Assembly: GCA_963675665.1 (NCBI GenBank)
Contig: OY776510.1
Coordinates: 2,432,001 to 2,496,000 of the forward strand
Length of the DNA: 64,000 bases
Direction: 5' to 3'
Origin: Spirochaetia bacterium
GTDB lineage: Bacteria; Spirochaetota; Spirochaetia; UBA9216
Part shown: positions 1,826 through 33,711 of the stretch, one piece after another
Layout: each line of letters starts with the position of its first letter
Position numbering within the stretch: the stretch's first letter is position 1
The notes under the pieces: model-generated
The model's database searches: none
The model's input: only the letters and a program-made list of their open reading frames with translations
Told to the model about the DNA's origin: nothing
Translations under genes and position numbers: made by a program

Positions 1826-2821
1826 ATGAAAACGAGTAATGAAATAAAGGAAGTATGCATAGGGCATTTAACACTGGATGATGTAGTCAACTATGACGGA
1901 ACTACGATGTTCAATACCGCCGGCGGGGCTGCGTTATACTCCGCAGCCGGGGCAGCGCTATGGTCGGAGCAAGTCGGAATTTTTGCCAAAGTAGGAAGCG
2001 ACTATGCGAAAGATAAAATACAGGAGCTTACCGGTATGGGAATAGATGTACAGGGGCTGAAAAAGGTCGGGTACCCCGGCATAAGCATCTGGGCGCTTTA
2101 TGAAAAAGACGGTGCAAGAAAATTCATTCCCAAGAGTTACTCGGGTGATTACGGGCATCTGGCGCCTGAGCCGGATGATTTTCCCGCGTCATACAGGGAG
2201 CAGGCTGAAGCGGTTCATATTTCACCTATGCCGCTTTCCTGTCAGTTGGAATTTCTCAAAAGCGGCTGGAGCAGGGACAAACTGGTTACTCTCGATCCAC
2301 ACTATGACTGGTGCGGACCTGAATATCATGACGAATGGACGGAAATCTTTCAGCGGGTTCACACTTTTCTTCCGAGTGAAGATGAAATAGTGGATTTGAT
2401 GGACCTGGACGGGAAAAAAGAGAAAATTAATGATTACAAAACGGTAATCGAAAAGATTGCCGCTGCCGGTGTCAGGGTCGTCGCGCTGAAACTGGGCGTA
2501 CGCGGGATACTTGTGTTTGATTCGGTGAAAGATTTGTTTTTCCATGTACCCAGCTGCGCCGGCCGGATTGTTGATGTCACAGGTGCGGGCGATGCATTTG
2601 CCGGCGGGTATCTTGCCGGGCTGTCAAAGGGTGAACCTGCGTTTGAAGCTGCTCTTAAGGGATGTGTTTCCTCATCAGCAGCGCTGGAAGGCTTCGGTGC
2701 GTTCAGCATGCTGCAGCATGCCGACGGAAAAATTGAAAGGCGGCTGGAAACACTCAGAAAAGAGTTTTTCTATAAATACGGAGAGTTGGCAACTCAGTTA
2801 TTTCAGGAGGAATTATCGTGA
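1826..2821 (+). CDS. PfkB/ribokinase-family carbohydrate kinase
   Basis: AGGAALYSA N-terminal motif and DVTGAGDAFAGG signature; start moved to ATG 1826 (AAGGGG RBS). Confidence 0.9.
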   Translation: MKTSNEIKEVCIGHLTLDDVVNYDGTTMFNTAGGAALYSAAGAALWSEQVGIFAKVGSDYAKDKIQELTGMGIDVQGLKKVGYPGISIWALYEKDGARKFIPKSYSGDYGHLAPEPDDFPASYREQAEAVHISPMPLSCQLEFLKSGWSRDKLVTLDPHYDWCGPEYHDEWTEIFQRVHTFLPSEDEIVDLMDLDGKKEKINDYKTVIEKIAAAGVRVVALKLGVRGILVFDSVKDLFFHVPSCAGRIVDVTGAGDAFAGGYLAGLSKGEPAFEAALKGCVSSSAALEGFGAFSMLQHADGKIERRLETLRKEFFYKYGELATQLFQEELS

Positions 2822-3945
2822 CCAATAATATCTGGACTCCGATGCTGGATGAAATCCGGAGTCAGCAGGAATACCTGCTTTCATGTTACAGGGAAGGTCT
2901 TGAACAGGCGGACCGGCTTTTAAAATCGTCTGAAGAAATCAGTATAGATAAAATATACATAACCGGCTGCGGAGATTCGTTCTATGCGGGGACCGTTTGC
3001 AAAATGTTTTTTTCAAAGTATGCCGGTGTTTCCACCGAGGTTTACCAGGCCCTTGAGTTCTCAAGATATATATGGCCGGAAATTGAAGAAAACAGTCTTG
3101 TCGTCGGCATATCCAGTTCGGGAGAGGTTGCAAGAACAATCGAATGCCTGAAGAGGGCAAAAAAAGCAGGAGCCCGGACTGTAGCGATAACAGCCGATCC
3201 GAATAGCAGACTGGCCCGGGCAGCCGATTCCGTTATCGAGGTAAAGATACCTTCATCCTACGGTAAACTGCCGGGTACCAGATCATATATGGGATCCGTT
3301 GCATCTCTGATGGGGCTGGCGGCAGTCATCGGGATAATTAAAGAGTTTATAACCCGCGATGATGCCGTACGTATTGAAAACATAATGGAAAATATTTCCG
3401 GTGCAATTGCTGAAACGATTGAGATTAATCTGACTGAAATCGAATCGATAATAGAAAATGAAAATATCGAACAGATTCAGCTTGCAGGCAGCGGTCCGAA
3501 CCTGGGAACTGCCGAATTCGGTGCCATGAAAATTCTGGAAGCAGCGGGTTTGAATTCATCCGTGCAGGGAACGGAAGAATGGGCACATACCCTTTATTTC
3601 ACTGCAGGAAGAGGCACATGCGTGTTTTTTATTGCTCCTGAAGGAAATTCCTTTGACCGTACAATTGAAATAATACCGGCTGTGAAAACAGTGGACGGAA
3701 CGGCAATTGTAATAACCGAAGAACGTAAAGCCGAAACTTTCAGCAGCGCCGACTACATCCTCAGAATCAGGGGCGTTGCTAATCTTCCGGAAGAATTCAG
3801 CGGCCTGCTTTTCATAATACCGCTTGAGATTCTGGCATATAAACTGGCCGTTTCGCTGAATGCCACGCCGATGGGCTTTGAAGACAATCCGGCAAAAAAG
3901 AAAGAGAATTTCAGGCAGATAAGGGAGTCCAGAATAACCGTATGA
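2818..3945 (+). CDS. Double-SIS-domain phosphosugar isomerase/deglycase (GlmS C-terminal/FrlB-like)
   Basis: GCGDSFYAG, ISSSGE, KILEAAG and EEWAH motifs; no glutaminase domain; overlaps the kinase stop. Confidence 0.88.
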   Translation: MTNNIWTPMLDEIRSQQEYLLSCYREGLEQADRLLKSSEEISIDKIYITGCGDSFYAGTVCKMFFSKYAGVSTEVYQALEFSRYIWPEIEENSLVVGISSSGEVARTIECLKRAKKAGARTVAITADPNSRLARAADSVIEVKIPSSYGKLPGTRSYMGSVASLMGLAAVIGIIKEFITRDDAVRIENIMENISGAIAETIEINLTEIESIIENENIEQIQLAGSGPNLGTAEFGAMKILEAAGLNSSVQGTEEWAHTLYFTAGRGTCVFFIAPEGNSFDRTIEIIPAVKTVDGTAIVITEERKAETFSSADYILRIRGVANLPEEFSGLLFIIPLEILAYKLAVSLNATPMGFEDNPAKKKENFRQIRESRITV

Positions 3946-4751
3946 AAATAAAAAGTGTTTACGCGATGGTCGGGCTTGAACCGCTTCCCGGAACATATAA
4001 CCACCGGGGGAAATGTATTCGTGATATTGCCTTTGCTGCTGTCGCTGAGGCGATAAAGCTTGAGAAAGCCGGTTTCTGCGGCCTGATAATTCAGAATATC
4101 AACGACTTTCCGGGAATGAAGAAAGTCAATCCTGAAATAACTGCTTATATGTCGGTTATCGGAAACGAGATAAGGGCGGCAGTTTCGCCGCAGATGCGTC
4201 TCGGGGTAAGTGTCCTTTGGAATGACGGCGAAGCTGCAGTGGCAGTAGCAGATGCGATTCAGGCCGACTTTGTAAGGCTGAAGGTCTTTATCGGGGCAAT
4301 GGTAAACGCGGAAGGAATAGTTCAGGGGTGCTCCGGAGAGGTTTTGCAGATAAAAAAACGGCTCGGAAGCAGAGTGGAACTCTGGGCTGATATTCTGGAC
4401 CGGACGGGATTTCCTCTCGGAGTTGTGAGCCAGGAAGAAGCGATAGTGCAGGCGATTAAACGCGGCGGCGCAGATGCCGTTATTCTGACCGGAAAAGAAC
4501 CGGAAAGGACCTGTGAAATGCTTGCAGCCGGTAAAAAGAAATTCGGCGATCTGAGAATATTCGCCGGGGGCGGGTGCACTCCCGGAAACCTGATGGAAAT
4601 ACTGAATTATGCAGACGGGGCGATTGTTGCTTCGAGTTTCAAGAAAGACGGAAACATGTACAACGCTATTGATGAAAAAAGGCTGAAAGAGTTTTCAGCC
4701 GCACTTAAAGAGGTACCAGACATATATTCCGGAAATATGTGTAGAAAATAA
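3942..4751 (+). CDS. BtpA/SgcQ family TIM-barrel protein
   Basis: AMVGLEPLPG, IIQNINDFP, GVSVLWND, ADAVILTG and ADGAIVASSFK motifs typical of BtpA. Confidence 0.85.
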   Translation: MKIKSVYAMVGLEPLPGTYNHRGKCIRDIAFAAVAEAIKLEKAGFCGLIIQNINDFPGMKKVNPEITAYMSVIGNEIRAAVSPQMRLGVSVLWNDGEAAVAVADAIQADFVRLKVFIGAMVNAEGIVQGCSGEVLQIKKRLGSRVELWADILDRTGFPLGVVSQEEAIVQAIKRGGADAVILTGKEPERTCEMLAAGKKKFGDLRIFAGGGCTPGNLMEILNYADGAIVASSFKKDGNMYNAIDEKRLKEFSAALKEVPDIYSGNMCRK

Positions 4752-4771
4752 AATTTGAAGGAGTTTGTCAG

Positions 4772-5818
4772 ATGAAAAAGTACAGTGTTTTGATATTAAC
4801 TGTAATCGTATCGATCGTTCTTATTGCCGGCTGCGCAAAAGAATCCTCAATTGAAGACGCCGGATCGGCTGAAAAGACGCCGGCCGGGAATGAACTGAAG
4901 GTAGCGCTTGTTTCGGATGTGGGAGGTGTAAACGACAATTCATTTAACCAGTCGGCATGGGAAGGATTACTCAGGGCTGAGACTGAACTGGGGGTCAATG
5001 TTTCATATGTTGAGTCAATGGACAGAAGCGAGTATTTTCAGAACCTTGAAACAATGCTCGAGAGTGAAAACAACCTGATATGGGGCGTAGGCTATATGAT
5101 GGCGGATGCAATGATAGAAGCCGCTCATACTAACCCGGACCAGAAGTATGCAATTATTGATAAATCATACGGAGATGAAACCCCGGAAAATCTTGTAGGT
5201 GTTGAGTTCAAGGCTGAGCAGGCTGCTTTTCTTGTGGGGTATATAGCCGGGAAAATGACGGAAACAGGAACAGTAGGGTTTATAGGCGGAATAAAGGGCG
5301 CAATCATCGACCAATTTGATTACGGTTACCATGCAGGTGTCCATACTGCAAACCCTGAGGTTAAAGTACTCAGACAGTATGCTAATTCTTTTACCGATAT
5401 AGCGATGGGAAAGGCTATTGCCAATTCAATGTATGAAGATGATGCGGATATTGTTTTTCATGCTGCAGGTCCCGTAGGAGACGGTTTGATTGAATCGGCG
5501 AAGGAAAGGGAAAAATGGGCGATCGGTGTCGACAAGGACCAGAACAGTCTGGCTCCCGACAATGTCCTGACTTCCGCAATGAAAAGAGTGGATAATGCAA
5601 TGTTCAATGTTGTGAAGGATCTGCAGGAAGGTAAGTTCAACGGCGGAAGCTCGGTTGTTTACGGACTTTCGGATGGAGGCGTTGATATAGCGCCGTCTTC
5701 AGATAAACATGTTCCCGCTTCAATACTTGAAGAAGTAGACGCTCTTAAAAAGAAGGTAATCAGCGGCGAAATTGCCGTTCCTTTCAATAAAGAGAGTTAC
5801 ACAGCTTTTATTAAGTAA
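4772..5818 (+). CDS. BMP family (nucleoside) ABC transporter substrate-binding lipoprotein
   Basis: LIAG-C lipobox; DVGGVNDNSFNQSAWEG, AIGVDKDQ and LTSAMKRVD motifs. Confidence 0.93.
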   Translation: MKKYSVLILTVIVSIVLIAGCAKESSIEDAGSAEKTPAGNELKVALVSDVGGVNDNSFNQSAWEGLLRAETELGVNVSYVESMDRSEYFQNLETMLESENNLIWGVGYMMADAMIEAAHTNPDQKYAIIDKSYGDETPENLVGVEFKAEQAAFLVGYIAGKMTETGTVGFIGGIKGAIIDQFDYGYHAGVHTANPEVKVLRQYANSFTDIAMGKAIANSMYEDDADIVFHAAGPVGDGLIESAKEREKWAIGVDKDQNSLAPDNVLTSAMKRVDNAMFNVVKDLQEGKFNGGSSVVYGLSDGGVDIAPSSDKHVPASILEEVDALKKKVISGEIAVPFNKESYTAFIK

Positions 5819-5829
5819 AGTTTTTTAAA

Positions 5830-7422
5830 TTGACGCAGCAGCCTGTATCAAGCAGGCTGCCTGGGTTTATCCGGAGGGAAAAATTGTCCAACAGCGAACG
5901 GGAAGAAGCTGTAGTAGAGATGCGGAATATTACAAAGATGTTCGGCAGTTTTACTGCAAACAATAATATTGATTTCACCCTGAGGAAGGGAGAAGTCCAT
6001 GCTCTTTTAGGGGAAAACGGCGCCGGAAAAACCACATTGATGAATATTCTATATGGGCTGTTGCATCCCGATTCAGGAGAAATATTTATATGTAACAGCA
6101 GGGTTAGAATGAAAAACCCCGCTGTGGCAATAGCTCACGGAATAGGGATGGTTCATCAGCACTTCATGCTGGTCCAGCCTTTCACAGTGACGGAGAATAT
6201 CATTCTCGGGTGTGAGACAACTAAAACGGGCTGGATCCTGGATATTGCCGCCGGAAGGAAAAAGGTCAGGGACCTTTCGGAAAAATACGGGCTTCAGGTA
6301 GATCCTGATGCGAGAATTTGTGATATTACCGTCGGAATGCAGCAGAGGGTAGAGATTCTCAAGGCACTATACCGGGGAGCTGAAATACTAATTCTGGATG
6401 AACCGACGGCTGTTCTTACGCCACAGGAGATCATAGAGCTTCAGAAGATTATGAGAAATCTTACTGCAAACGGCAAGTCGATTATCATAATTACTCATAA
6501 GCTTAAAGAAATTAAACAATCGGCTGATCGCTGTACAATCATCCGGAGAGGTCACTATATAGATACCCTGGATGTATCCGGAGTAACGGAACGTGAACTT
6601 GCATCAAGAATGGTAGGAAGGGAAATAAATTTTTCTATCGATAAAAAGGAATGCAGCAGGGGCAACAGGGTGCTTGAACTCCGGGACCTGGTTCTGTTCA
6701 ATAAACGGAATATCAGGATGCTTAACAATCTGACGCTCGATGTTCATGCAGGAGAAATAGTAGGACTTGCGGGAGTCGACGGAAACGGTCAAAGCGAACT
6801 GATCGAATCTATAATGGGGGTACTGCCGGTATCATCGGGCAGTATTTTCATAAACGGAACCGACATGGCGAATAAAGCCCCCCGAAAGGTGATTGAAAGC
6901 GGAATAGCGAGCATACCGGAAGACCGTCAGAAACGCGGGCTGGTTCTTGAACACTCTGTTTCGGAAAACATGATAATCGAGAATTATTACAGAAAGCCTT
7001 TCTCCAGTAAAGGGCTGCTGGATAAAATTTCCGTGAATAAACATGCACGGGAGCTTATTGAAAGGTTCGACATCAGGCCGGATGATCCGCAGATAAAAGC
7101 AGGCGCTTTATCCGGGGGTAACCAGCAGAAGGTAATAATTGCGCGTGAAGTCTCTAACAATCCTGATTTGTTGATAGCTGCACAGCCTACAAGGGGGCTG
7201 GACGTCGGTGCGATTGAATTTGTTCACAGAACCATTATTGAACAGAGGGACAGGGGGAAAGCTGTTCTTCTTGTATCCTTTGAACTTGATGAGATCCTTC
7301 AGCTATCCGACCGGATAGCTGTAATATACGAAGGCAAGATTACGGGCGTGCTGAATGCACAGAATACTGATGAGAATGAAATAGGCCTGATGATGGCGGG
7401 AGGTGCGCACAATGAAAGCTAA
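5830..7422 (+). CDS. Nucleoside/sugar ABC transporter ATP-binding protein (two NBDs)
   Basis: GENGAGKTT, LDEPT, LSGGNQQK and AAQPTRGLD motifs; the true start may be TTG 5884 or ATG 5920. Confidence 0.92.
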   Translation: MTQQPVSSRLPGFIRREKLSNSEREEAVVEMRNITKMFGSFTANNNIDFTLRKGEVHALLGENGAGKTTLMNILYGLLHPDSGEIFICNSRVRMKNPAVAIAHGIGMVHQHFMLVQPFTVTENIILGCETTKTGWILDIAAGRKKVRDLSEKYGLQVDPDARICDITVGMQQRVEILKALYRGAEILILDEPTAVLTPQEIIELQKIMRNLTANGKSIIIITHKLKEIKQSADRCTIIRRGHYIDTLDVSGVTERELASRMVGREINFSIDKKECSRGNRVLELRDLVLFNKRNIRMLNNLTLDVHAGEIVGLAGVDGNGQSELIESIMGVLPVSSGSIFINGTDMANKAPRKVIESGIASIPEDRQKRGLVLEHSVSENMIIENYYRKPFSSKGLLDKISVNKHARELIERFDIRPDDPQIKAGALSGGNQQKVIIAREVSNNPDLLIAAQPTRGLDVGAIEFVHRTIIEQRDRGKAVLLVSFELDEILQLSDRIAVIYEGKITGVLNAQNTDENEIGLMMAGGAHNES

Positions 7423-27118: not shown

Positions 27119-28021
27119 TTAGATCTCGTCGGCTATCCGGCAGAACAGCCACCAGGCCGCGTAGGCTTTCATGTTTGAGTTGATTGATTCAGTATGGGCC
27201 CCGCCGCAATCGTACCAGTCGGATCCTTCGGTGTGTGTGTTCTGCCAGGCTGTTGCCCAGTTGCCGCCTGTGTAATTACAGGCATCATCGGCATTTTGCG
27301 AAAGGTAGTTTCTTCCGTCGGGATCGTGGCTTTCTATATCGGCGAAGTCAAACAGCCATTTATCATTATTTTTGCAGAAGCTTCTGATTTGCTCGTTTCG
27401 TTGATTTAAATTACCGTCTTCGCCTGTTCCGTCGAGATGTCCCGTCATATATATAAATGTAATTTCAGGGTGCGCTTTCTCAAAGGCCGACATTGGAGCA
27501 AGATACTCATCAATCATCGCCTGTTCGGTTTTGGAAGATACCTGGCCGCACCACGACCACATTATTACGTTGTATCTGTCGTATTCGGAATCATCAAGAA
27601 AATCCTGTGTTTCATTTACCCATGAAGGATAATAACCCGCATCCAGCTCCAAATGTCCGTCGCCATACCCTGCGCCCTCAAAATAATCAAGAGCGCCATC
27701 CGAACCTGTTGAATTAAAATTAAAGAGATCAGTTGAGTAATCTCTGTTCAGATTTCCTTCATTGGAGAAATAGATGAGGCCGTTCATTCCGGTTGTAATT
27801 TGGCTTCCGTGTGATGTGTGACCGTAAGCTATATGCAATTTGCTTTTTACCTGTTTGATATCCGATTCGCTTATACGGCCTTCCGGGAGTTCATGAATGA
27901 CTTTGTGATCAGCTGTTTTTGATTTTGCTGTTTCTTCATCAATATTATCATTACAGCTGTAAAGCTGAAATAAACAAACCAGAGAAAGCAGAAAATACAA
28001 GCGGCCTATTTGAATTTTCAT
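27119..28021 (-). CDS. Lipoprotein of unknown function (SGNH-hydrolase-like fold possible)
   Basis: LYS-C lipobox; YGHTSHGSQITTG, WSWCGQ and FDFADIES motifs. Confidence 0.65.
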   Translation of the reverse strand: MKIQIGRLYFLLSLVCLFQLYSCNDNIDEETAKSKTADHKVIHELPEGRISESDIKQVKSKLHIAYGHTSHGSQITTGMNGLIYFSNEGNLNRDYSTDLFNFNSTGSDGALDYFEGAGYGDGHLELDAGYYPSWVNETQDFLDDSEYDRYNVIMWSWCGQVSSKTEQAMIDEYLAPMSAFEKAHPEITFIYMTGHLDGTGEDGNLNQRNEQIRSFCKNNDKWLFDFADIESHDPDGRNYLSQNADDACNYTGGNWATAWQNTHTEGSDWYDCGGAHTESINSNMKAYAAWWLFCRIADEI

Positions 28022-28101
28022 ATGAACAATTATACCACGATATGATTATGATTTCATAAATGCTGTACTAATGAAGATATTGAAAGATTTATAATGATAA
28101 A

Positions 28102-28130
28102 CTGCCCGGATTGTGTATCAATCCGGGCAG
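28102..28130 (-). terminator. Terminator of the aldehyde dehydrogenase gene
   Basis: ctgcccggattg/caatccgggcag 12-bp stem followed by TTTAT on the minus strand. Confidence 0.75.
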
Positions 28131-28138
28131 GAGCAGTA

Positions 28139-29548
28139 TTACAACATGCCCTTGAGTACTATGGTTTTTAATTGACTCATTTCTTCAAGGGTATTGAGCA
28201 TCCCCTCGCGTCCGATTCCGCTTTTCTTGTAACCGCCGAAAGGCTGATCAAGCGTCCGGTATGTACCGTGACCATTAATGACGGTACAGCCGCATTCAAG
28301 CGCAGCAGCCTGCTGCAGCGCCCGTTTATAATTACCCGAGAACACCGCCCCCGACAGGCCGAACTGTGAAGAATTGGCAATACGAACGGCCTCTTCATCG
28401 GTTTCAAACCCTATAATCGGAAAAACCGGTCCGAAAATTTCCATATCGGTTGCTACACTGCATTTCGGCAAAACATTGGTGATAACTGCAGGTTTGAAAA
28501 AATTGTTCTCCAACCTTTCCCCTCCCCAGTAAAGCGTACAACCTTCCGAAATGCATATGTCAATCTGTTTCATAACGGTATCAAGCGCTGATTTACTTAT
28601 AATACATCCCAGATCACTGTCTTCATCGGCAGGATTAGTTATTCTGATTTTTTTCAGCCTGTCGACAAGCAAATCGGCAAAAGTGTCTTTCACTGAATTG
28701 TGTATAATAAACCGCTTGGGCGCGCAGCAGGTCTGTCCTGTATTCTGAAGTCTGCCTTCAATTGCTTCGTTTGCAGCAAGTTCAAGATCAGAATCTTCAT
28801 GGACAATAAAAGCATCATTTCCGCCGAGTTCAAGAAATACTCTGTGCAGATTCGGCGCCGCATTAACCATTATCCGGATTCCTACATCAGTACTGCCGGT
28901 AAGGCTTACAGCCGCAATGTCCGGGTTTGTAACAAGCCATTTACCGACATCTGCGCCGCTTCCCGATACGAACTGAATCAGATTCTCCGGAAAACCGATA
29001 TCATCGGCCAGTTCAATCATCATCTTTACCGCCAGCGGATTGGTGCTTGCAGGCTTAACGATTATGGGGTTGCCGGCGGCAATGGCCGGTGCAGCCTTCT
29101 GACTGTAAAGTTCCACCGGATAATTAAACGGTACGATGCATGCTATCGGCCCTATCGGCTCCCGGACTGTATAGATGATATCGCTTTCGATTCCGGGCTG
29201 CGACTGGGGAAGGACTTCCGAGTACATATGTTTTATACGCTCGGCGTATCCCTCAAAAATGCGTGCTGCAACATCTGCCTCGCCGCGGCATTCGGTTATC
29301 CGTTTTCCCATCTCAGCACACTCAAGCCTTGCAATGCTTTCCTGTTTTGTACGAATTTTGTCCGCATACTTGTACATAAGTTCCGCACGGCGGTATACCG
29401 GGACTCTCTTCCATTCTGAGGCGGCTTTGAGGGATTTTTGTACGATGCTCTGAATTTGAGCTTCGGAGGCGCGTGGAACGGATCCTACAAGTGATCCGTC
29501 CACCGGGTTGTGGACATTGATGCCGGATTCCGGCATAACTGAGTTCAT
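28139..29548 (-). CDS. NAD(P)-dependent aldehyde dehydrogenase
   Basis: PFNYP, VKPAS, TGST, LELGGND (catalytic Glu), GQTCC (catalytic Cys), EIFGP, PFGGYKKSGIGREG. Confidence 0.95.
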   Translation of the reverse strand: MNSVMPESGINVHNPVDGSLVGSVPRASEAQIQSIVQKSLKAASEWKRVPVYRRAELMYKYADKIRTKQESIARLECAEMGKRITECRGEADVAARIFEGYAERIKHMYSEVLPQSQPGIESDIIYTVREPIGPIACIVPFNYPVELYSQKAAPAIAAGNPIIVKPASTNPLAVKMMIELADDIGFPENLIQFVSGSGADVGKWLVTNPDIAAVSLTGSTDVGIRIMVNAAPNLHRVFLELGGNDAFIVHEDSDLELAANEAIEGRLQNTGQTCCAPKRFIIHNSVKDTFADLLVDRLKKIRITNPADEDSDLGCIISKSALDTVMKQIDICISEGCTLYWGGERLENNFFKPAVITNVLPKCSVATDMEIFGPVFPIIGFETDEEAVRIANSSQFGLSGAVFSGNYKRALQQAAALECGCTVINGHGTYRTLDQPFGGYKKSGIGREGMLNTLEEMSQLKTIVLKGML

Positions 29549-29551
29549 ATG

Positions 29552-29662
29552 AATCTCCTTTCCAATGAGGGAGGCATTGCTGTTTCCGGCAATACCCTGT
29601 CGGTCCGGTTCCCGTAGCCAGGCTGAAACAGCTGATCCTTAGGGAGAAGGGACTCGAAGATT
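29552..29662 (-). ncRNA. Moco RNA motif (molybdenum/tungsten-cofactor riboswitch), P3-less variant
   Basis: On the minus strand AATCTTC-GAGTC...CCTAAG...TACGG...GGAC-CGAC-AGGGTATTGC-CGGAAACA-GCAATGCCTCCC-TCATT-GGAAAGGAGATT; P1 pairs over the RBS. Confidence 0.8.
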
Positions 29663-29703
29663 TTTTACAAGATTAATACAGGCATGCAGGCCATGTCAAG
29701 AAC

Positions 29704-29715
29704 ATTGTATACAAT
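29704..29715. promoter_or_regulatory. Palindromic operator candidate just upstream of the ALDH -35 box (TTGACA at 29699-29694)
   Basis: Perfect palindrome ATTGTATACAAT, GntR-family-like. Confidence 0.45.
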
Positions 29716-29813
29716 AAGATCGTTTACTGCATGTAACAAGGTTGTCACATTCTTCTGTTTTTACTTTTTTTATGATATAATCATCTATATTTTATATTGG
29801 AACGAGGTTCAGG

Positions 29814-30592
29814 ATGAAAAAATTGATGATAATTTTTCTTGTGTTTTCTGCTTTAATCTTCAGCAGTTGTGATTTTTTTACAGTATTTTCGGATCCCCGG
29901 ATGCCTACATAATTACGTTCTCAATGCAGGGAAGTGTTGGTGAAGCTGAAATAGATAATGAAAACCGAACTGTTGTTATTACAGTTGAACCGATGGATAT
30001 CTCTGATATCTCGCCCGACATAACGATATCTGAAGGAGCCACTATAACCGGACCATCATCTATCGAGGACGGAGTAGCTGCTGTATATACTCTTACAGCT
30101 GAGAACGGTGATATTCTGGAATGGGAAGTAACAATTAATGTACAGTACGGTGTTTCATTTACCGTTGAAGGCCAGAAGGTTGTTCTGACCGGAGGTTTTA
30201 AAGACAGCGGCGATTTCACAGCCAATGAGGCTTGCGGCCACGGGGTTCCAGGCATTCAGAAAATTGACGGAGATGGTATGGCCCTTGAACATGTCTACGA
30301 CTGGAATGTTTTATCCGAAGCACCACCGTACGATTATTTGGATATATATGTTAATGGTATGACAACAGGTACATTTAAAGGAGAATTTGATTTCTATGAT
30401 TATTCGGAAGACTCCTTAGAATACTTCTACGGTAATATAGCAGTATCAGAGTTCGGTGCAATCGGCGGAAATTTCCGGGCTGAGTTCTCAGGAGTTAACG
30501 AAGGTGAAACAAAAAGTCTGATAAACGGTTTTGCCAAGCTTATGGTCATCGAGGACCTTGGCTTCGGGAGCATCGAAGAAGTATTGTATTAG
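29814..30592 (+). pseudogene. Frameshifted lipoprotein (DUF5018/Ig-like domain)
   Basis: MKKLMIIFLVFSALIFSS-C signal peptide stops at 29912; one extra T in the T7 run at 29873-29879 fuses it in frame to ORF 29924..30592. Confidence 0.78.
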
Positions 30593-30609
30593 AATTTATG
30601 TTCCTGGCT

Positions 30610-30647
30610 GCTTACGCCGTTTTCCTGTAATTTCTTCGGCGTAAGCT
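30610..30647 (+). terminator. Stem-loop after the lipoprotein gene
   Basis: gcttacgccg/cggcgtaagc inverted repeat. Confidence 0.5.
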
Positions 30648-30708
30648 GATGTTTCAAAATATCTGTTCATTTTTTTGATTTATTCCTGTTTTTTACTATA
30701 ATAAAAAC

Positions 30709-32493
30709 ATGAAAAGCTTTAAGGACCCTTTTCTTTTTATTATTGCCGCTTATACTGTTTTTTTTACTGTGCCCGCCGTTCTGTCTGCGCAGGATGATAT
30801 TGAAAGTTTAAAAAAGAAAGTTCTGGTTATACACCCGTTTCATGAGCTCAGTGAATGGGAAAGCAGTTTCAATTATGCTTTTCATTCGGCACTTAGCAAA
30901 AGAGAGGATGTTCAGGTAAGCATTTTTCATGAATTCAGCGCTGCAGATCTTGCCGACGGGTTTAAGACAGAAGAAGAACTGGCTGAAGATCTGGGAAATC
31001 TTGTAGATTTTATCAAACCGGATGCCATTGTTTCATTATTTTCATCGATACATAATCTTATGATTGATTATCAAAGTATAATTAATGCAAATGTACCAAA
31101 TATCTGTGTTCCGGTAACGGAACAGATGATGAAAAAGCTGGAATCGTTACCGGGCTTTTATGGTGTAAAAAGTATCTCCGGAAAAGCCATGGCTGAGACA
31201 ATTAATGTAATGAAGTTGCTGATACCTGAATTACGGCAGATATATGTTGTCGGAGGCGTTTCAGTTACTGATAATACATACAGAAGACTGTTTCAATCCG
31301 TAATCAGTACCGGGCAGACAGATTTGGAATACCATTACCTGACAGGTTTGTCTCTGGCCAAGCTTCTTTCCGAGGTTTCGGGGCTGCCTGCAAATTCAGC
31401 AATATTTTATTTAACAGTGAACGAAGATAATAAAGGCGACTATTATAATACGAATGCAATATTGCCTGAAATCGTAAAAAAGGCATCTGTACCCATCTTT
31501 TCATTTTATGATTCGCTTCTTGGTTTCGATATAGTCGGCGGAAATATGACGAGCGCTGAATTTTACGGAAATTATACTGCAGAATTACTGATCAAGCTTA
31601 TGACCGAAGCATCTTCCGATATTCAGGAAAATGAGGAGAGAAGCAGCTTTATATTTAACTGGCCGCAGTTGAAACGTTGGGGGATCGATGTCGATATGCT
31701 TCCGGAAAACAGTATAGTCATGGATCGGGAGTACACATTCCGGGAACAATATAAAGGCCGCATTATTGCGGCTATTGCAATCGGAATTCTTCAAGCCGTA
31801 CTGATAATTGCTTTGATATATTTCCTGAATAAGAAAAGACTTGCGGAGAAAATGCTTCAGCAGAGAAAGAACCAGCTTGAAGAATCTCTTAATGAGAAAG
31901 AGATTCTGCTGAAAGAAATTCATCATCGCGTAAAAAATAACATGGCCATAATAAGCTCTTTTCTGAACCTGCAGTCTGATAATCTAGATAAGGATCTTTC
32001 AGAAATTTTTATCACTGCTGAAAACAGGGTTCAATCCATGGCTTTGATACACGAACAGCTATATAAAAATGATACATTCGGAGATATCAACCTGCAGGAC
32101 TATTTTAAGGATCTGATAAACAATTTGGTACAGAGTTATAAACTTGCATGTGTGCTGGATCTTAAAATGAATATTCAGAAGCTGAGTCTTGACCTGGACA
32201 AGCTGATACCTATAGGAATTATTACCAATGAAATAATCTCCAACTCGATGAAGCATGCATTCAATTGCGAAAAGAAGCCCGCGCTTGAAATTCAACTGAA
32301 AGCTCTGGAACATTCGAGATGTATTCTTGAAATAACAGACAACGGGCCCGGTTTTCCGCTGGAAATTTTAACGGATAAAAAAGACTCTATCGGAATAATT
32401 ATTATTAAATCCCTGGTTGAACAGCTGAACGGCAAGATAGAATTATCAACTGTAGAAGGGGTTAATTATAAAATTTCTTTTCCAATGCATTAA
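30709..32493 (+). CDS. Sensor histidine kinase (HisKA_2 type) with periplasmic ABC-SBP-like sensor
   Basis: EIHHRVKNN, SMALIHEQLY, NEIISNSMKHAF and DNGPG motifs; signal peptide plus one TM. Confidence 0.92.
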   Translation: MKSFKDPFLFIIAAYTVFFTVPAVLSAQDDIESLKKKVLVIHPFHELSEWESSFNYAFHSALSKREDVQVSIFHEFSAADLADGFKTEEELAEDLGNLVDFIKPDAIVSLFSSIHNLMIDYQSIINANVPNICVPVTEQMMKKLESLPGFYGVKSISGKAMAETINVMKLLIPELRQIYVVGGVSVTDNTYRRLFQSVISTGQTDLEYHYLTGLSLAKLLSEVSGLPANSAIFYLTVNEDNKGDYYNTNAILPEIVKKASVPIFSFYDSLLGFDIVGGNMTSAEFYGNYTAELLIKLMTEASSDIQENEERSSFIFNWPQLKRWGIDVDMLPENSIVMDREYTFREQYKGRIIAAIAIGILQAVLIIALIYFLNKKRLAEKMLQQRKNQLEESLNEKEILLKEIHHRVKNNMAIISSFLNLQSDNLDKDLSEIFITAENRVQSMALIHEQLYKNDTFGDINLQDYFKDLINNLVQSYKLACVLDLKMNIQKLSLDLDKLIPIGIITNEIISNSMKHAFNCEKKPALEIQLKALEHSRCILEITDNGPGFPLEILTDKKDSIGIIIIKSLVEQLNGKIELSTVEGVNYKISFPMH

Positions 32494-32565
32494 CCGGTAT
32501 TTCAGGAACACAGAAGGACGGCGCCTCTTGATTATTTTGTATACGATTTATAAAATGTCTTTAAA

Positions 32566-33711
32566 TTGAAAAATAATCAGCTATTATCATTTTTATCTTT
32601 TCTTCGTTCCCCGAAAATAAACGATGACATCAAATTGGATTATCTATTTTATAAATTCAATACAAATAATTTCAGGATAATCATTCTCGCAAGTGTTCTT
32701 TTTTTTGAACAGCTGCTGCTTGGAATTCTTGTTGCCGGAAAAGAATCAGTATTAAGGTATGTTTATTTTATTTCAGCTATAATAATGTTGCTCTATATTA
32801 TGGCGGGAATATTTTTCTACAATAAAAGACCGGGAAAAATAAGGGGGCATCACCAGATTTATGAAATAAGTTTCGCATTTATCGGAATATATATTGCTGT
32901 TTTTCGGATTCTGGTGGTAGAAAACGGAAATCCTGGAGTGCCTGCTGTTTATATGGCCGTACTTTACGGAGTTGCCGTTATTTTTGTTTTCAATCTATGG
33001 CAGGGTGTTGTATTATATGGATCTGTTACTATTGCAGCTGTAATTCTAATGCCTTACTTTAATTCCGGAATTACTGTTTCAAATTACAGATCTGATATTA
33101 TTACTAACGGAATAATTGCCTGGGTTGTTTTGTTTATAAATTATCGCAGATTCCAGAATGCTTTTATTGATAAGAAACATATTGAAGAAATTAATCTCGA
33201 ATTGCATGAAAAATCAATTCGGGACGGACTGACCGGACTATATAACAGGCGTAAGCTGGACGAAGTATTTCAGGAAGTGTGTCTTAAAGCTGAACGGTAT
33301 AAAAATGATTTTGCGGTAATAATGATGGATATAGATCATTTCAAGGATATAAACGATCGGTTTGGTCATAGTTTCGGTGATGTGGTTCTGACAAAAATCG
33401 CCAGAATTCTTGAGAACAATATACGGGAAGTAGATGTTTGTGGCAGGTGGGGCGGTGAAGAATTTCAGATCATCTGCCATGAAACTGAAATGGAAGCAGC
33501 AGGACAACTGGCTGAACGGCTTCGGCTGATGATAGAAGAACAGTTGTTTCGGGACGGAATTCATATCACTGCCAGTTTCGGGGTATCGTCATGGAGCGAA
33601 TGCGGTAATGATTCGGAAAAACTGATCGAAACGGCTGATTCAAGACTTTATCAGGCCAAGGCTGACGGCCGGAACCGGGTTAATGCCGGCCAATGGATGA
33701 AATCAACCTGA
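32566..33711 (+). CDS. Membrane diguanylate cyclase
   Basis: About six TMs; DGLTGLYNRR, DIDHFK, REVD I-site, GGEEF. Confidence 0.92.
   Translation: MKNNQLLSFLSFLRSPKINDDIKLDYLFYKFNTNNFRIIILASVLFFEQLLLGILVAGKESVLRYVYFISAIIMLLYIMAGIFFYNKRPGKIRGHHQIYEISFAFIGIYIAVFRILVVENGNPGVPAVYMAVLYGVAVIFVFNLWQGVVLYGSVTIAAVILMPYFNSGITVSNYRSDIITNGIIAWVVLFINYRRFQNAFIDKKHIEEINLELHEKSIRDGLTGLYNRRKLDEVFQEVCLKAERYKNDFAVIMMDIDHFKDINDRFGHSFGDVVLTKIARILENNIREVDVCGRWGGEEFQIICHETEMEAAGQLAERLRLMIEEQLFRDGIHITASFGVSSWSECGNDSEKLIETADSRLYQAKADGRNRVNAGQWMKST

Follow-up and report, generated by a model that had tools for sequence, protein, structure and literature searches.

Among the described systems most like the one studied here is the molybdenum cofactor (Moco) riboswitch of Escherichia coli moaA, a proven OFF switch with an expression platform that spans the ribosome-binding site (Regulski et al, 2008; PMC2408646). 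According to the accessible text of the same report, RNAs of this family that lack the P3 stem correlate with use of the tungsten cofactor (Tuco) and are linked almost exclusively to genes for molybdopterin (MPT) biosynthesis or to Tuco-using enzymes (PMC2408646). "Tuco" riboswitches have also been described in Eubacterium limosum, and the accessible text names as their targets WOR1, TupABC, two Fe ABC transporters and FocA, and no aldehyde dehydrogenase (PMC11725836). The published targets in these two sources thus comprise MPT/Moco biosynthesis, molybdate/tungstate transporters, cofactor-using enzymes, Fe-type ABC transporters, and FocA (PMC2408646, PMC11725836). Here, we analyze a 64-kb stretch of contig OY776510.1 from a Spirochaetia bacterium (the window), in which a P3-less RNA of the Moco family (Rfam RF01055) forms the 5′ leader of a gene for an NAD(P)-type aldehyde dehydrogenase (ALDH). 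In a full-text literature search, no paper emerged that connects RF01055 with an NAD(P) ALDH, although supplements and subscription journals might list a case. Judging from the sequence comparisons below, we consider it rather probable that this leader acts as a cofactor-repressed translational OFF switch of the P3-less, Tuco type on a pterin-independent enzyme that would serve as a tungsten-sparing substitute.

An RF01055 aptamer on the ribosome-binding site of an ALDH gene

Scanning the window with the Rfam models (cmscan) yielded three matches above the gathering score: two tRNAs and an RF01055 aptamer at 29539..29671 on the minus strand. At 61.5 bits (E = 2.4e-12), the aptamer exceeds the gathering score of 36; it covers model positions 1-135 and was recovered as the same copy by a whole-genome search. 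In the cmscan alignment, model positions ~62-76, which hold P3, are deleted, and P2 is joined to P4 through GACCGACAGGG. P2 contains CCCUAAGG...CUACGGG, and its receptor-like bulge reads CCUAAG...UACGG, with UACGG as the 3′ half of the receptor instead of the AUGG found in the other RF01055 copies of the genome. P4 is capped by a GAAA tetraloop (29583..29586, minus strand, within GGAAAC), as seen both in the sequence and in the cmscan alignment, and the 3′ portion of the aptamer reads CCUCCC...GGAAAGGAG. When five ALDH leaders (the other four are described below) were folded jointly with RNAalifold, stems P1, P2, P4, and P5 were recovered, and 7 of the 26 pairs had changed on both sides.

P1 comprises seven pairs, one of them U-G. 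Its 5′ strand, AAUCUUC (29656..29662, minus strand), was located by cmscan, folding, and RNAalifold and is a predicted anti-Shine-Dalgarno sequence toward the 3′ strand, GGAGAUU (29552..29558, minus strand; sequence, cmscan, and folding). The latter includes the Shine-Dalgarno GGAG (29558-29555), with a spacer of 6 nt to the ATG at 29548. The presence of an RF01055 riboswitch on the ribosome-binding site of the ALDH gene is confirmed: the leader joins a score over the full model to the P1, P2, P4, and P5 stems, a GNRA tetraloop, the P2 bulge, and a 5′ position with an expression platform. With respect to the P3-less ("Tuco") subtype, the P3 columns are deleted and the host genome carries tungsten-cofactor genes. 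The ALDH-leader RNA is an ordinary P3-less member of RF01055, and the novelty lies in its target gene. These results bear out a preliminary description of this DNA, made from the sequence alone, which had reported Moco RNA hallmarks in the leader, a missing P3, and a Shine-Dalgarno inside P1. All of the elements that it quoted are present, and the covariance-model match that it had proposed as a check is significant.

The gene itself (28139..29548, minus strand) encodes a 469-aa protein with an intact frame and a full-length match to Pfam Aldedh (PF00171; 484 bits, residues 9-463). Its translation contains the stretches ELGGND and GQTCC, which we take to be motifs of the ALDH catalytic region. 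The protein reached no NCBIfam equivalog cut-off, the best being lactaldehyde dehydrogenase (380 bits vs 650), and its best relatives of solved structure are a generic ALDH, SSADH, and BADH. Members of the ALDH family use NAD(P) and require no pterin cofactor; aldehyde oxidation with a tungsten or molybdenum pterin is the reaction of the aldehyde:ferredoxin oxidoreductase (AOR) and MOP enzymes. A perfect 7-bp hairpin, AUGCCGG AAU CCGGCAU (window 29520-29536, minus strand), spans ALDH codons 5-10 and was predicted in every fold of the leader; by eye, no counterpart was seen at the start of the closest orthologue (L057, below), on which no fold was run.

Upstream of the aptamer, a −35-like hexamer TTGACA (29694..29699, minus strand) and, 15-16 nt past it, a weak −10-like TATTAAT (29672..29678, minus strand) can be read from the sequence. 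A consensus promoter scan passed neither of them, owing to the weakness of the −10. A TTGAC(A/C) box is found at a similar distance upstream of the aptamer in the ALDH leaders of L057 and of two other genomes introduced below (G008 and G010), and transcription of the ALDH gene would start approximately where the RF01055 match begins. Past the stop codon lies a terminator-like hairpin (28102..28130, minus strand) with a 12-pair stem, 8 of its pairs being G-C, and the tail TTTATCATTA. Because this hairpin follows the stop codon and TTGACA lies upstream of the aptamer, the unit is predicted to be monocistronic, and its layout looks like promoter, riboswitch, one gene, and terminator.

A palindrome, ATTGTATACAAT (29704..29715), is indeed present 4 nt upstream of TTGACA, and it had been put forward as a second, protein-level input. 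This proposal found no support. The palindrome occurs once in the 5.15-Mb genome, compared with ~0.8 copies expected by chance, its 10-mer core occurs 5 times with ~10 expected, and it was not found upstream of the G008, G010, or L057 ALDH leaders, which have nothing but the TTGAC(A/C) box in common with this region. Given this chance-level copy number and the lack of conservation in three related ALDH promoters, we rejected it as an operator.

Riboswitch-linked ALDH genes and their start-codon wiring

Among 5.8 billion proteins, a single one, P0002, is more than 52% identical to the window ALDH (65% identity). It is encoded on a 1.9-kb metagenome contig (L057), where its gene is likewise preceded by a P3-less RF01055 RNA (67.1 bits) with the ATG 7 nt past GGAG. 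A comparison of the two leaders revealed compensatory changes in P2 and P4. The best relative among 40 related genomes is 47% identical (G007), and genomes of the same genus reach only 33-34%.

We further surveyed the bacterial class in a sample of 151 genomes, 54 of which, including this one, contain RF01055. The 108 above-cut-off matches outside this genome were taken with 2.2 kb downstream, two matches below the cut-off being excluded, and the first downstream open reading frame (ORF) was compared with Pfam. An Aldedh gene directly follows RF01055 in 3 of the 108 cases, namely in G008 and G010, two members of a single genus that shares its family with this genome, and in G049, which belongs to another family. 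The three proteins are 28-32% identical to the window ALDH and show 38% identity between the two groups; that of G010 lies above the NCBIfam cut-off for the aminobutyraldehyde dehydrogenase subfamily (637 vs 615 bits), and its gene neighbors encode an aminotransferase, a Zn-ADH, and an acetate kinase. P3 is lacking from the G008 and G010 leaders in their cmscan alignments, and the G049 leader was judged P3-less by reading the sequence rather than from an alignment.

Compared with 119 other aptamers, that of the window ALDH is most similar to those of G010, G008, and L057 (similarity scores of 61.5, 58, and 56.5), all of which are ALDH-linked, and the next best scores 39.5. On aptamer similarity, the leaders of the window ALDH, L057, G008, and G010 are one lineage placed on two very different ALDHs, and the riboswitch-ALDH pair of G049 is a separate recruitment. 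In G049, the ALDH gene with its RF01055 leader is followed in tandem by another RF01055 copy and the gene for a MOP-type pterin aldehyde oxidoreductase of 916 aa (L169, G049:C1:4000-14000). Features of this locus lie at L169 positions 2329-3920 and 4056-7030, and a 759-aa Fe-S/NAD-binding protein follows the 916-aa enzyme. In the second G049 leader, P1 is directly followed by a 9-codon ORF, and a hairpin precedes the true start. The preliminary description had also raised the possibility that the window aptamer is left over from a deleted Moco gene. We rejected this idea: the 65% orthologue has kept the leader, with compensatory changes in its stems, and three further ALDH genes are wired alike.

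Across the class, the first gene after RF01055 most commonly encodes an SBP_bac_8 binding protein of ~500 aa (28 of 108), followed by PBP_like_2 (TupA-like, 24), 4Fe-4S ferredoxin (15), and AOR (14). Radical SAM proteins occur 3 times, MoCoBD (xanthine dehydrogenase/MOP type), purB, and Peripla_BP_2 twice each, and Big_5, ModA-like, MoeA, and methyltransferase genes once each; 11 first genes had no Pfam match at E 1e-10.

The start codons of these genes are placed in two distinct ways. For all 108 leaders, we measured how far the purine tetramer in the P1 3′ strand stands from the start codon, which was taken as the first one in frame with the downstream ORF and called mechanically, and took a spacer of 3-12 nt to mean that the P1 GGAG itself serves as the Shine-Dalgarno. 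Such spacers are found in all three ALDH leaders of the survey (6, 6, and 8 nt, compared with 6 nt in the window and 7 nt in L057) and in 44 of the 52 uptake-transporter leaders (TupA-like, 18/24; SBP_bac_8, 26/28), but in none of the 31 leaders of cofactor-related enzyme genes (AOR, 0/14; ferredoxin, 0/15; MoCoBD, 0/2). In the latter, the start codon lies at least 17 nt beyond P1, and most of the 25 AOR/ferredoxin leaders that were inspected have a second GGAGG just before it. In leaders of this kind, for example L094, L106, L138, L143, L144, L126, and L145, the second GGAGG lies 12-20 nt past the P1 GGAG, with the start 5-8 nt further on. The 5′ strand of P1 (CUCC) could pair with either the P1 GGAG or the second GGAGG in these AOR/ferredoxin leaders.

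This choice of pairing partners suggests that the genes of cofactor-using enzymes are turned ON by the switch. Uptake transporters, for their part, are sensibly repressed only by the end product. Repression of the ALDH by the cofactor is supported, since the ALDH leaders are wired like those of the transporters and unlike those of the cofactor-using enzymes. The backup-enzyme logic with an OFF switch, as first proposed in the preliminary description, would thus fit the comparative architecture of the leaders.

Cofactor genes and the predicted role of the riboswitch

The window sits in a single 5.15-Mb contig with 43% G+C. Because this genome contains 16 AFOR_C matches together with one MoaC, two MoeA_N, and one PF00384 molybdopterin oxidoreductase match, the organism is, on gene content, rich in tungsten-type aldehyde oxidoreductases and able to make the pterin cofactor. 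It carries 11 RF01055 copies above the cut-off, 8 without and 3 with P3. The P3-less copies include the leaders of a TupABC-like operon (PBP_like_2, permease, and ABC-TOBE), of a ferredoxin and AOR pair, and of the ALDH gene, and the P3-bearing ones are those of a ModABC-like operon (SBP_bac_11, permease, and ABC-TOBE) and of two FecCD clusters. A MAFFT alignment of 12 aptamers, which is only roughly in register, served only to spot the P3 insert. The 16 AFOR_C matches, together with the TupABC-like and ModABC-like operons behind P3-less and P3-bearing copies, respectively, mark the genome as a heavy user of tungsten-type enzymes; the absence of Mo/W enzymes, which the preliminary description had named as a refuting outcome, is not what the genome shows. 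RF01055 directly before an ALDH gene in a genome with 16 AOR-family genes corresponds to the architecture of a cofactor-sparing isozyme switch.

In the mechanism that we propose, the P3-less RNA in the ALDH mRNA leader would sense Tuco. With plentiful cofactor, the aptamer would fold and P1 would close, hiding the only Shine-Dalgarno of the ALDH gene and blocking translation; with scarce cofactor, P1 would open and the ALDH would be made. The enzyme could then oxidize aldehydes that the many tungsten AORs cannot handle without their cofactor. Because the ALDH needs no pterin cofactor, its role is most likely that of a tungsten-sparing substitute. We infer which ligand is bound, that the switch is OFF, and that the substrates of the ALDH overlap with those of AOR.

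Several observations weigh against this mechanism. Thermodynamic folding places the ALDH leader in a minimum-energy structure from which P1 is absent, and in the unconstrained ensemble the Shine-Dalgarno GAG is mostly paired, with codons 2-3 contributing to some of this pairing through a small local hairpin. Since P1 is not in the minimum-energy fold and GAG is already mostly paired, folding cannot fix the direction of the switch. Forcing P1 costs ~1.9 kcal/mol in the ensemble, a cost low enough that ligand binding could plausibly tip the balance. Given that ligand is not required for the Shine-Dalgarno to pair in a local hairpin, the switch might instead be ON, might act mainly on transcription or mRNA stability, or the aptamer might be a decaying remnant without effect on the ALDH. 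We regard this as highly improbable, as neither a second Shine-Dalgarno nor a terminator lies between aptamer and ATG and the architecture is that of uptake-transporter leaders, unlike that of the enzyme leaders. Moreover, the RF01055 score is high and full-length, the leader is kept with compensatory changes in the 65% orthologue, G008, and G010, and the three aptamers most similar to it (G010, G008, and L057) are all ALDH-linked.

The assignment of the ligand is the next point. The published claim for P3-less RNAs rests on correlation rather than on binding, and the accessible text reports exceptions to the link between P3 and Tuco and no direct binding for any Moco RNA (PMC2408646). The RNA could accordingly sense Moco, molybdopterin, or both metal forms, so that the ALDH would follow the general status of the pterin cofactor instead of tungsten, and the MoaC, MoeA, and PF00384 genes noted above would be compatible with such an arrangement. 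Against it speaks the distribution of the copies, in which the TupA-like and AOR genes stand behind P3-less aptamers and the ModA-like gene behind a P3-bearing one, as ligand discrimination predicts, and we therefore hold a general pterin sensor to be distinctly unlikely.

With respect to function, the overlap between ALDH and AOR is an assumption, and only 1 of the 16 AOR genes has a riboswitch leader of its own. The RNA might repress the ALDH at plentiful cofactor while the enzyme serves another need that arises when cofactor is low, such as the oxidation of aminobutyraldehyde, lactaldehyde, or a semialdehyde, or redox balancing, but not the replacement of AOR. The riboswitch-linked ALDHs span three subfamilies, that of G010 passes the aminobutyraldehyde dehydrogenase cut-off, and the window ALDH is nearest to lactaldehyde dehydrogenase or SSADH; in addition, the regulon of the genus includes the purB-guaB-purA-guaA operon (see below), and hence reaches beyond cofactor-using enzymes. 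However, aldehyde oxidation is the common denominator of the three subfamilies and is also the reaction of AOR and MOP enzymes, the G049 ALDH adjoins a pterin aldehyde oxidoreductase, and the G010 neighbors are typical for aldehydes derived from amino acids. A role other than AOR substitution appears unlikely to us.

The distribution of the leader also counts among these points. RF01055 was found in none of nine loci with homologues of 43-47% identity (L020, L049-L056) and near none of the three ALDH paralogues of the same genome; among 31 Rfam-scanned homologue and paralogue loci, L057 alone has it. Loci L040-L042, L044-L046, and L048 were compared with the RF01055 coordinates of the class survey in place of an Rfam scan, which exposed the G008 and G010 cases. 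In the class sample, the association with ALDH is rare, comprising 4 of 119 RF01055 matches. The expectation that orthologues would share the leader therefore stands for the 65% orthologue but not for the nine homologues or the three paralogues, and we rejected the riboswitch leader as a general trait of this ALDH family.

Genomes of the same genus lack both the ALDH gene and the RNA at this position. In G003 (L166, G003:C28), the interval between the conserved cNMP/STAS and GGDEF genes holds an MCP gene, a 254-aa ORF, and an ArsP permease gene, and no RF01055. In the window, this interval (27119-33711) contains, apart from the riboswitch-ALDH unit, ORFs of 300 and 116 aa and the gene for a HisKA_2 kinase. 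As the G003 interval holds other genes, the riboswitch-ALDH unit lies in a variable stretch.

The tungsten-sparing OFF switch may be one half of a wider scheme, which we offer tentatively and as possible rather than probable. Tungsten-using anaerobes would perform a reciprocal, RNA-only enzyme swap from one aptamer class: transporters and ALDH would be turned OFF through the only Shine-Dalgarno in P1, and AOR/ferredoxin genes would be turned ON through a second Shine-Dalgarno 12-20 nt past P1 that is freed by the cofactor, with at least three ALDH subfamilies recruited independently as tungsten-sparing substitutes. If the proposed repression of the pterin-free ALDH is true, it would explain how AOR-rich anaerobes cope with tungsten shortage, and the ALDH leader would represent a compact, single-gene translational switch.

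The remaining RF01055 copies of the genome lead to transport and purine genes. One precedes a cluster of SBP_bac_8, Oxidored_molyb, and permease genes (L015, G000:C1:1417678-1425121), in which the genes after SBP_bac_8 encode a protein with an Oxidored_molyb domain and a permease that is fused. Five precede FecCD/Peripla_BP_2 ABC-transporter clusters (G000 loci L009, L011, L013, L016, and L017); P3 is present in two of these five leaders, and radical-SAM genes occur in three of the five clusters, two of them encoding ~750-aa proteins.

A further copy, at G000:C1:3452594-3452715 on the plus strand (L010 301-422), precedes the purB-guaB-purA-guaA operon. This RNA is P3-less, scores 78.4 bits, and is followed by a terminator-like hairpin, and purB is also the first gene past RF01055 in two genomes of the same genus, in L077 (G003) and L093 (G004). 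As the pterin cofactor is made from GTP, RF01055 on this operon may place the purine/GTP supply under cofactor control. This target is not named in the accessible text of PMC2408646 or PMC11725836.

Comparison with known systems

Similar to the E. coli moaA riboswitch, the ALDH leader is an RF01055 RNA with a P1-P2-P4-P5 core and a GAAA tetraloop; its ribosome-binding site likewise lies in or at P1, and OFF logic is reported for the E. coli RNA (PMC2408646). It differs from moaA in that P3 is missing and in that its target has no part in making, transporting, or using the cofactor. The resemblance to E. limosum extends to the regulon: both organisms carry P3-less RF01055 copies, E. limosum is an anaerobe that uses tungsten-AOR/WOR enzymes, and its targets, according to the accessible text, include a WOR operon as well as TupABC and, like those of the present genome, ABC transporters of the FecCD type (PMC11725836). 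The last are called iron transporters there (PMC11725836), a substrate that may not hold for the clusters found here.

A related idea exists for S. wolfei, where two P3-less RNAs precede sulfite-oxidase-like genes and where Regulski et al (2008) floated repression at rising Tuco if a Tuco-dependent alternative exists (PMC2408646). Because its ModA-like transporter genes stand behind a P3-bearing copy and its TupA-like ones behind a P3-less copy, the present genome is convenient for testing the 2008 proposal of Tuco-specific P3-less RNAs. Bearing on substitution between the two enzyme types, AOR took over in an Aromatoleum mutant without its aldehyde dehydrogenase (PMC6365974).

The proposed logic of the locus matches that of the B12 riboswitch on metE, in which a cofactor-sensing RNA likewise stands on the cofactor-independent counterpart of a cofactor-dependent enzyme (PMC11260477). 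The RNA family, the ligand, and the enzyme pair all differ between the two systems, and isofunctionality of ALDH and AOR is assumed here. If the pterin-free ALDH is indeed under cofactor repression, the principle of cofactor-sparing isozymes, so far known for B12 with metE, would extend to the tungsten/molybdenum cofactor.

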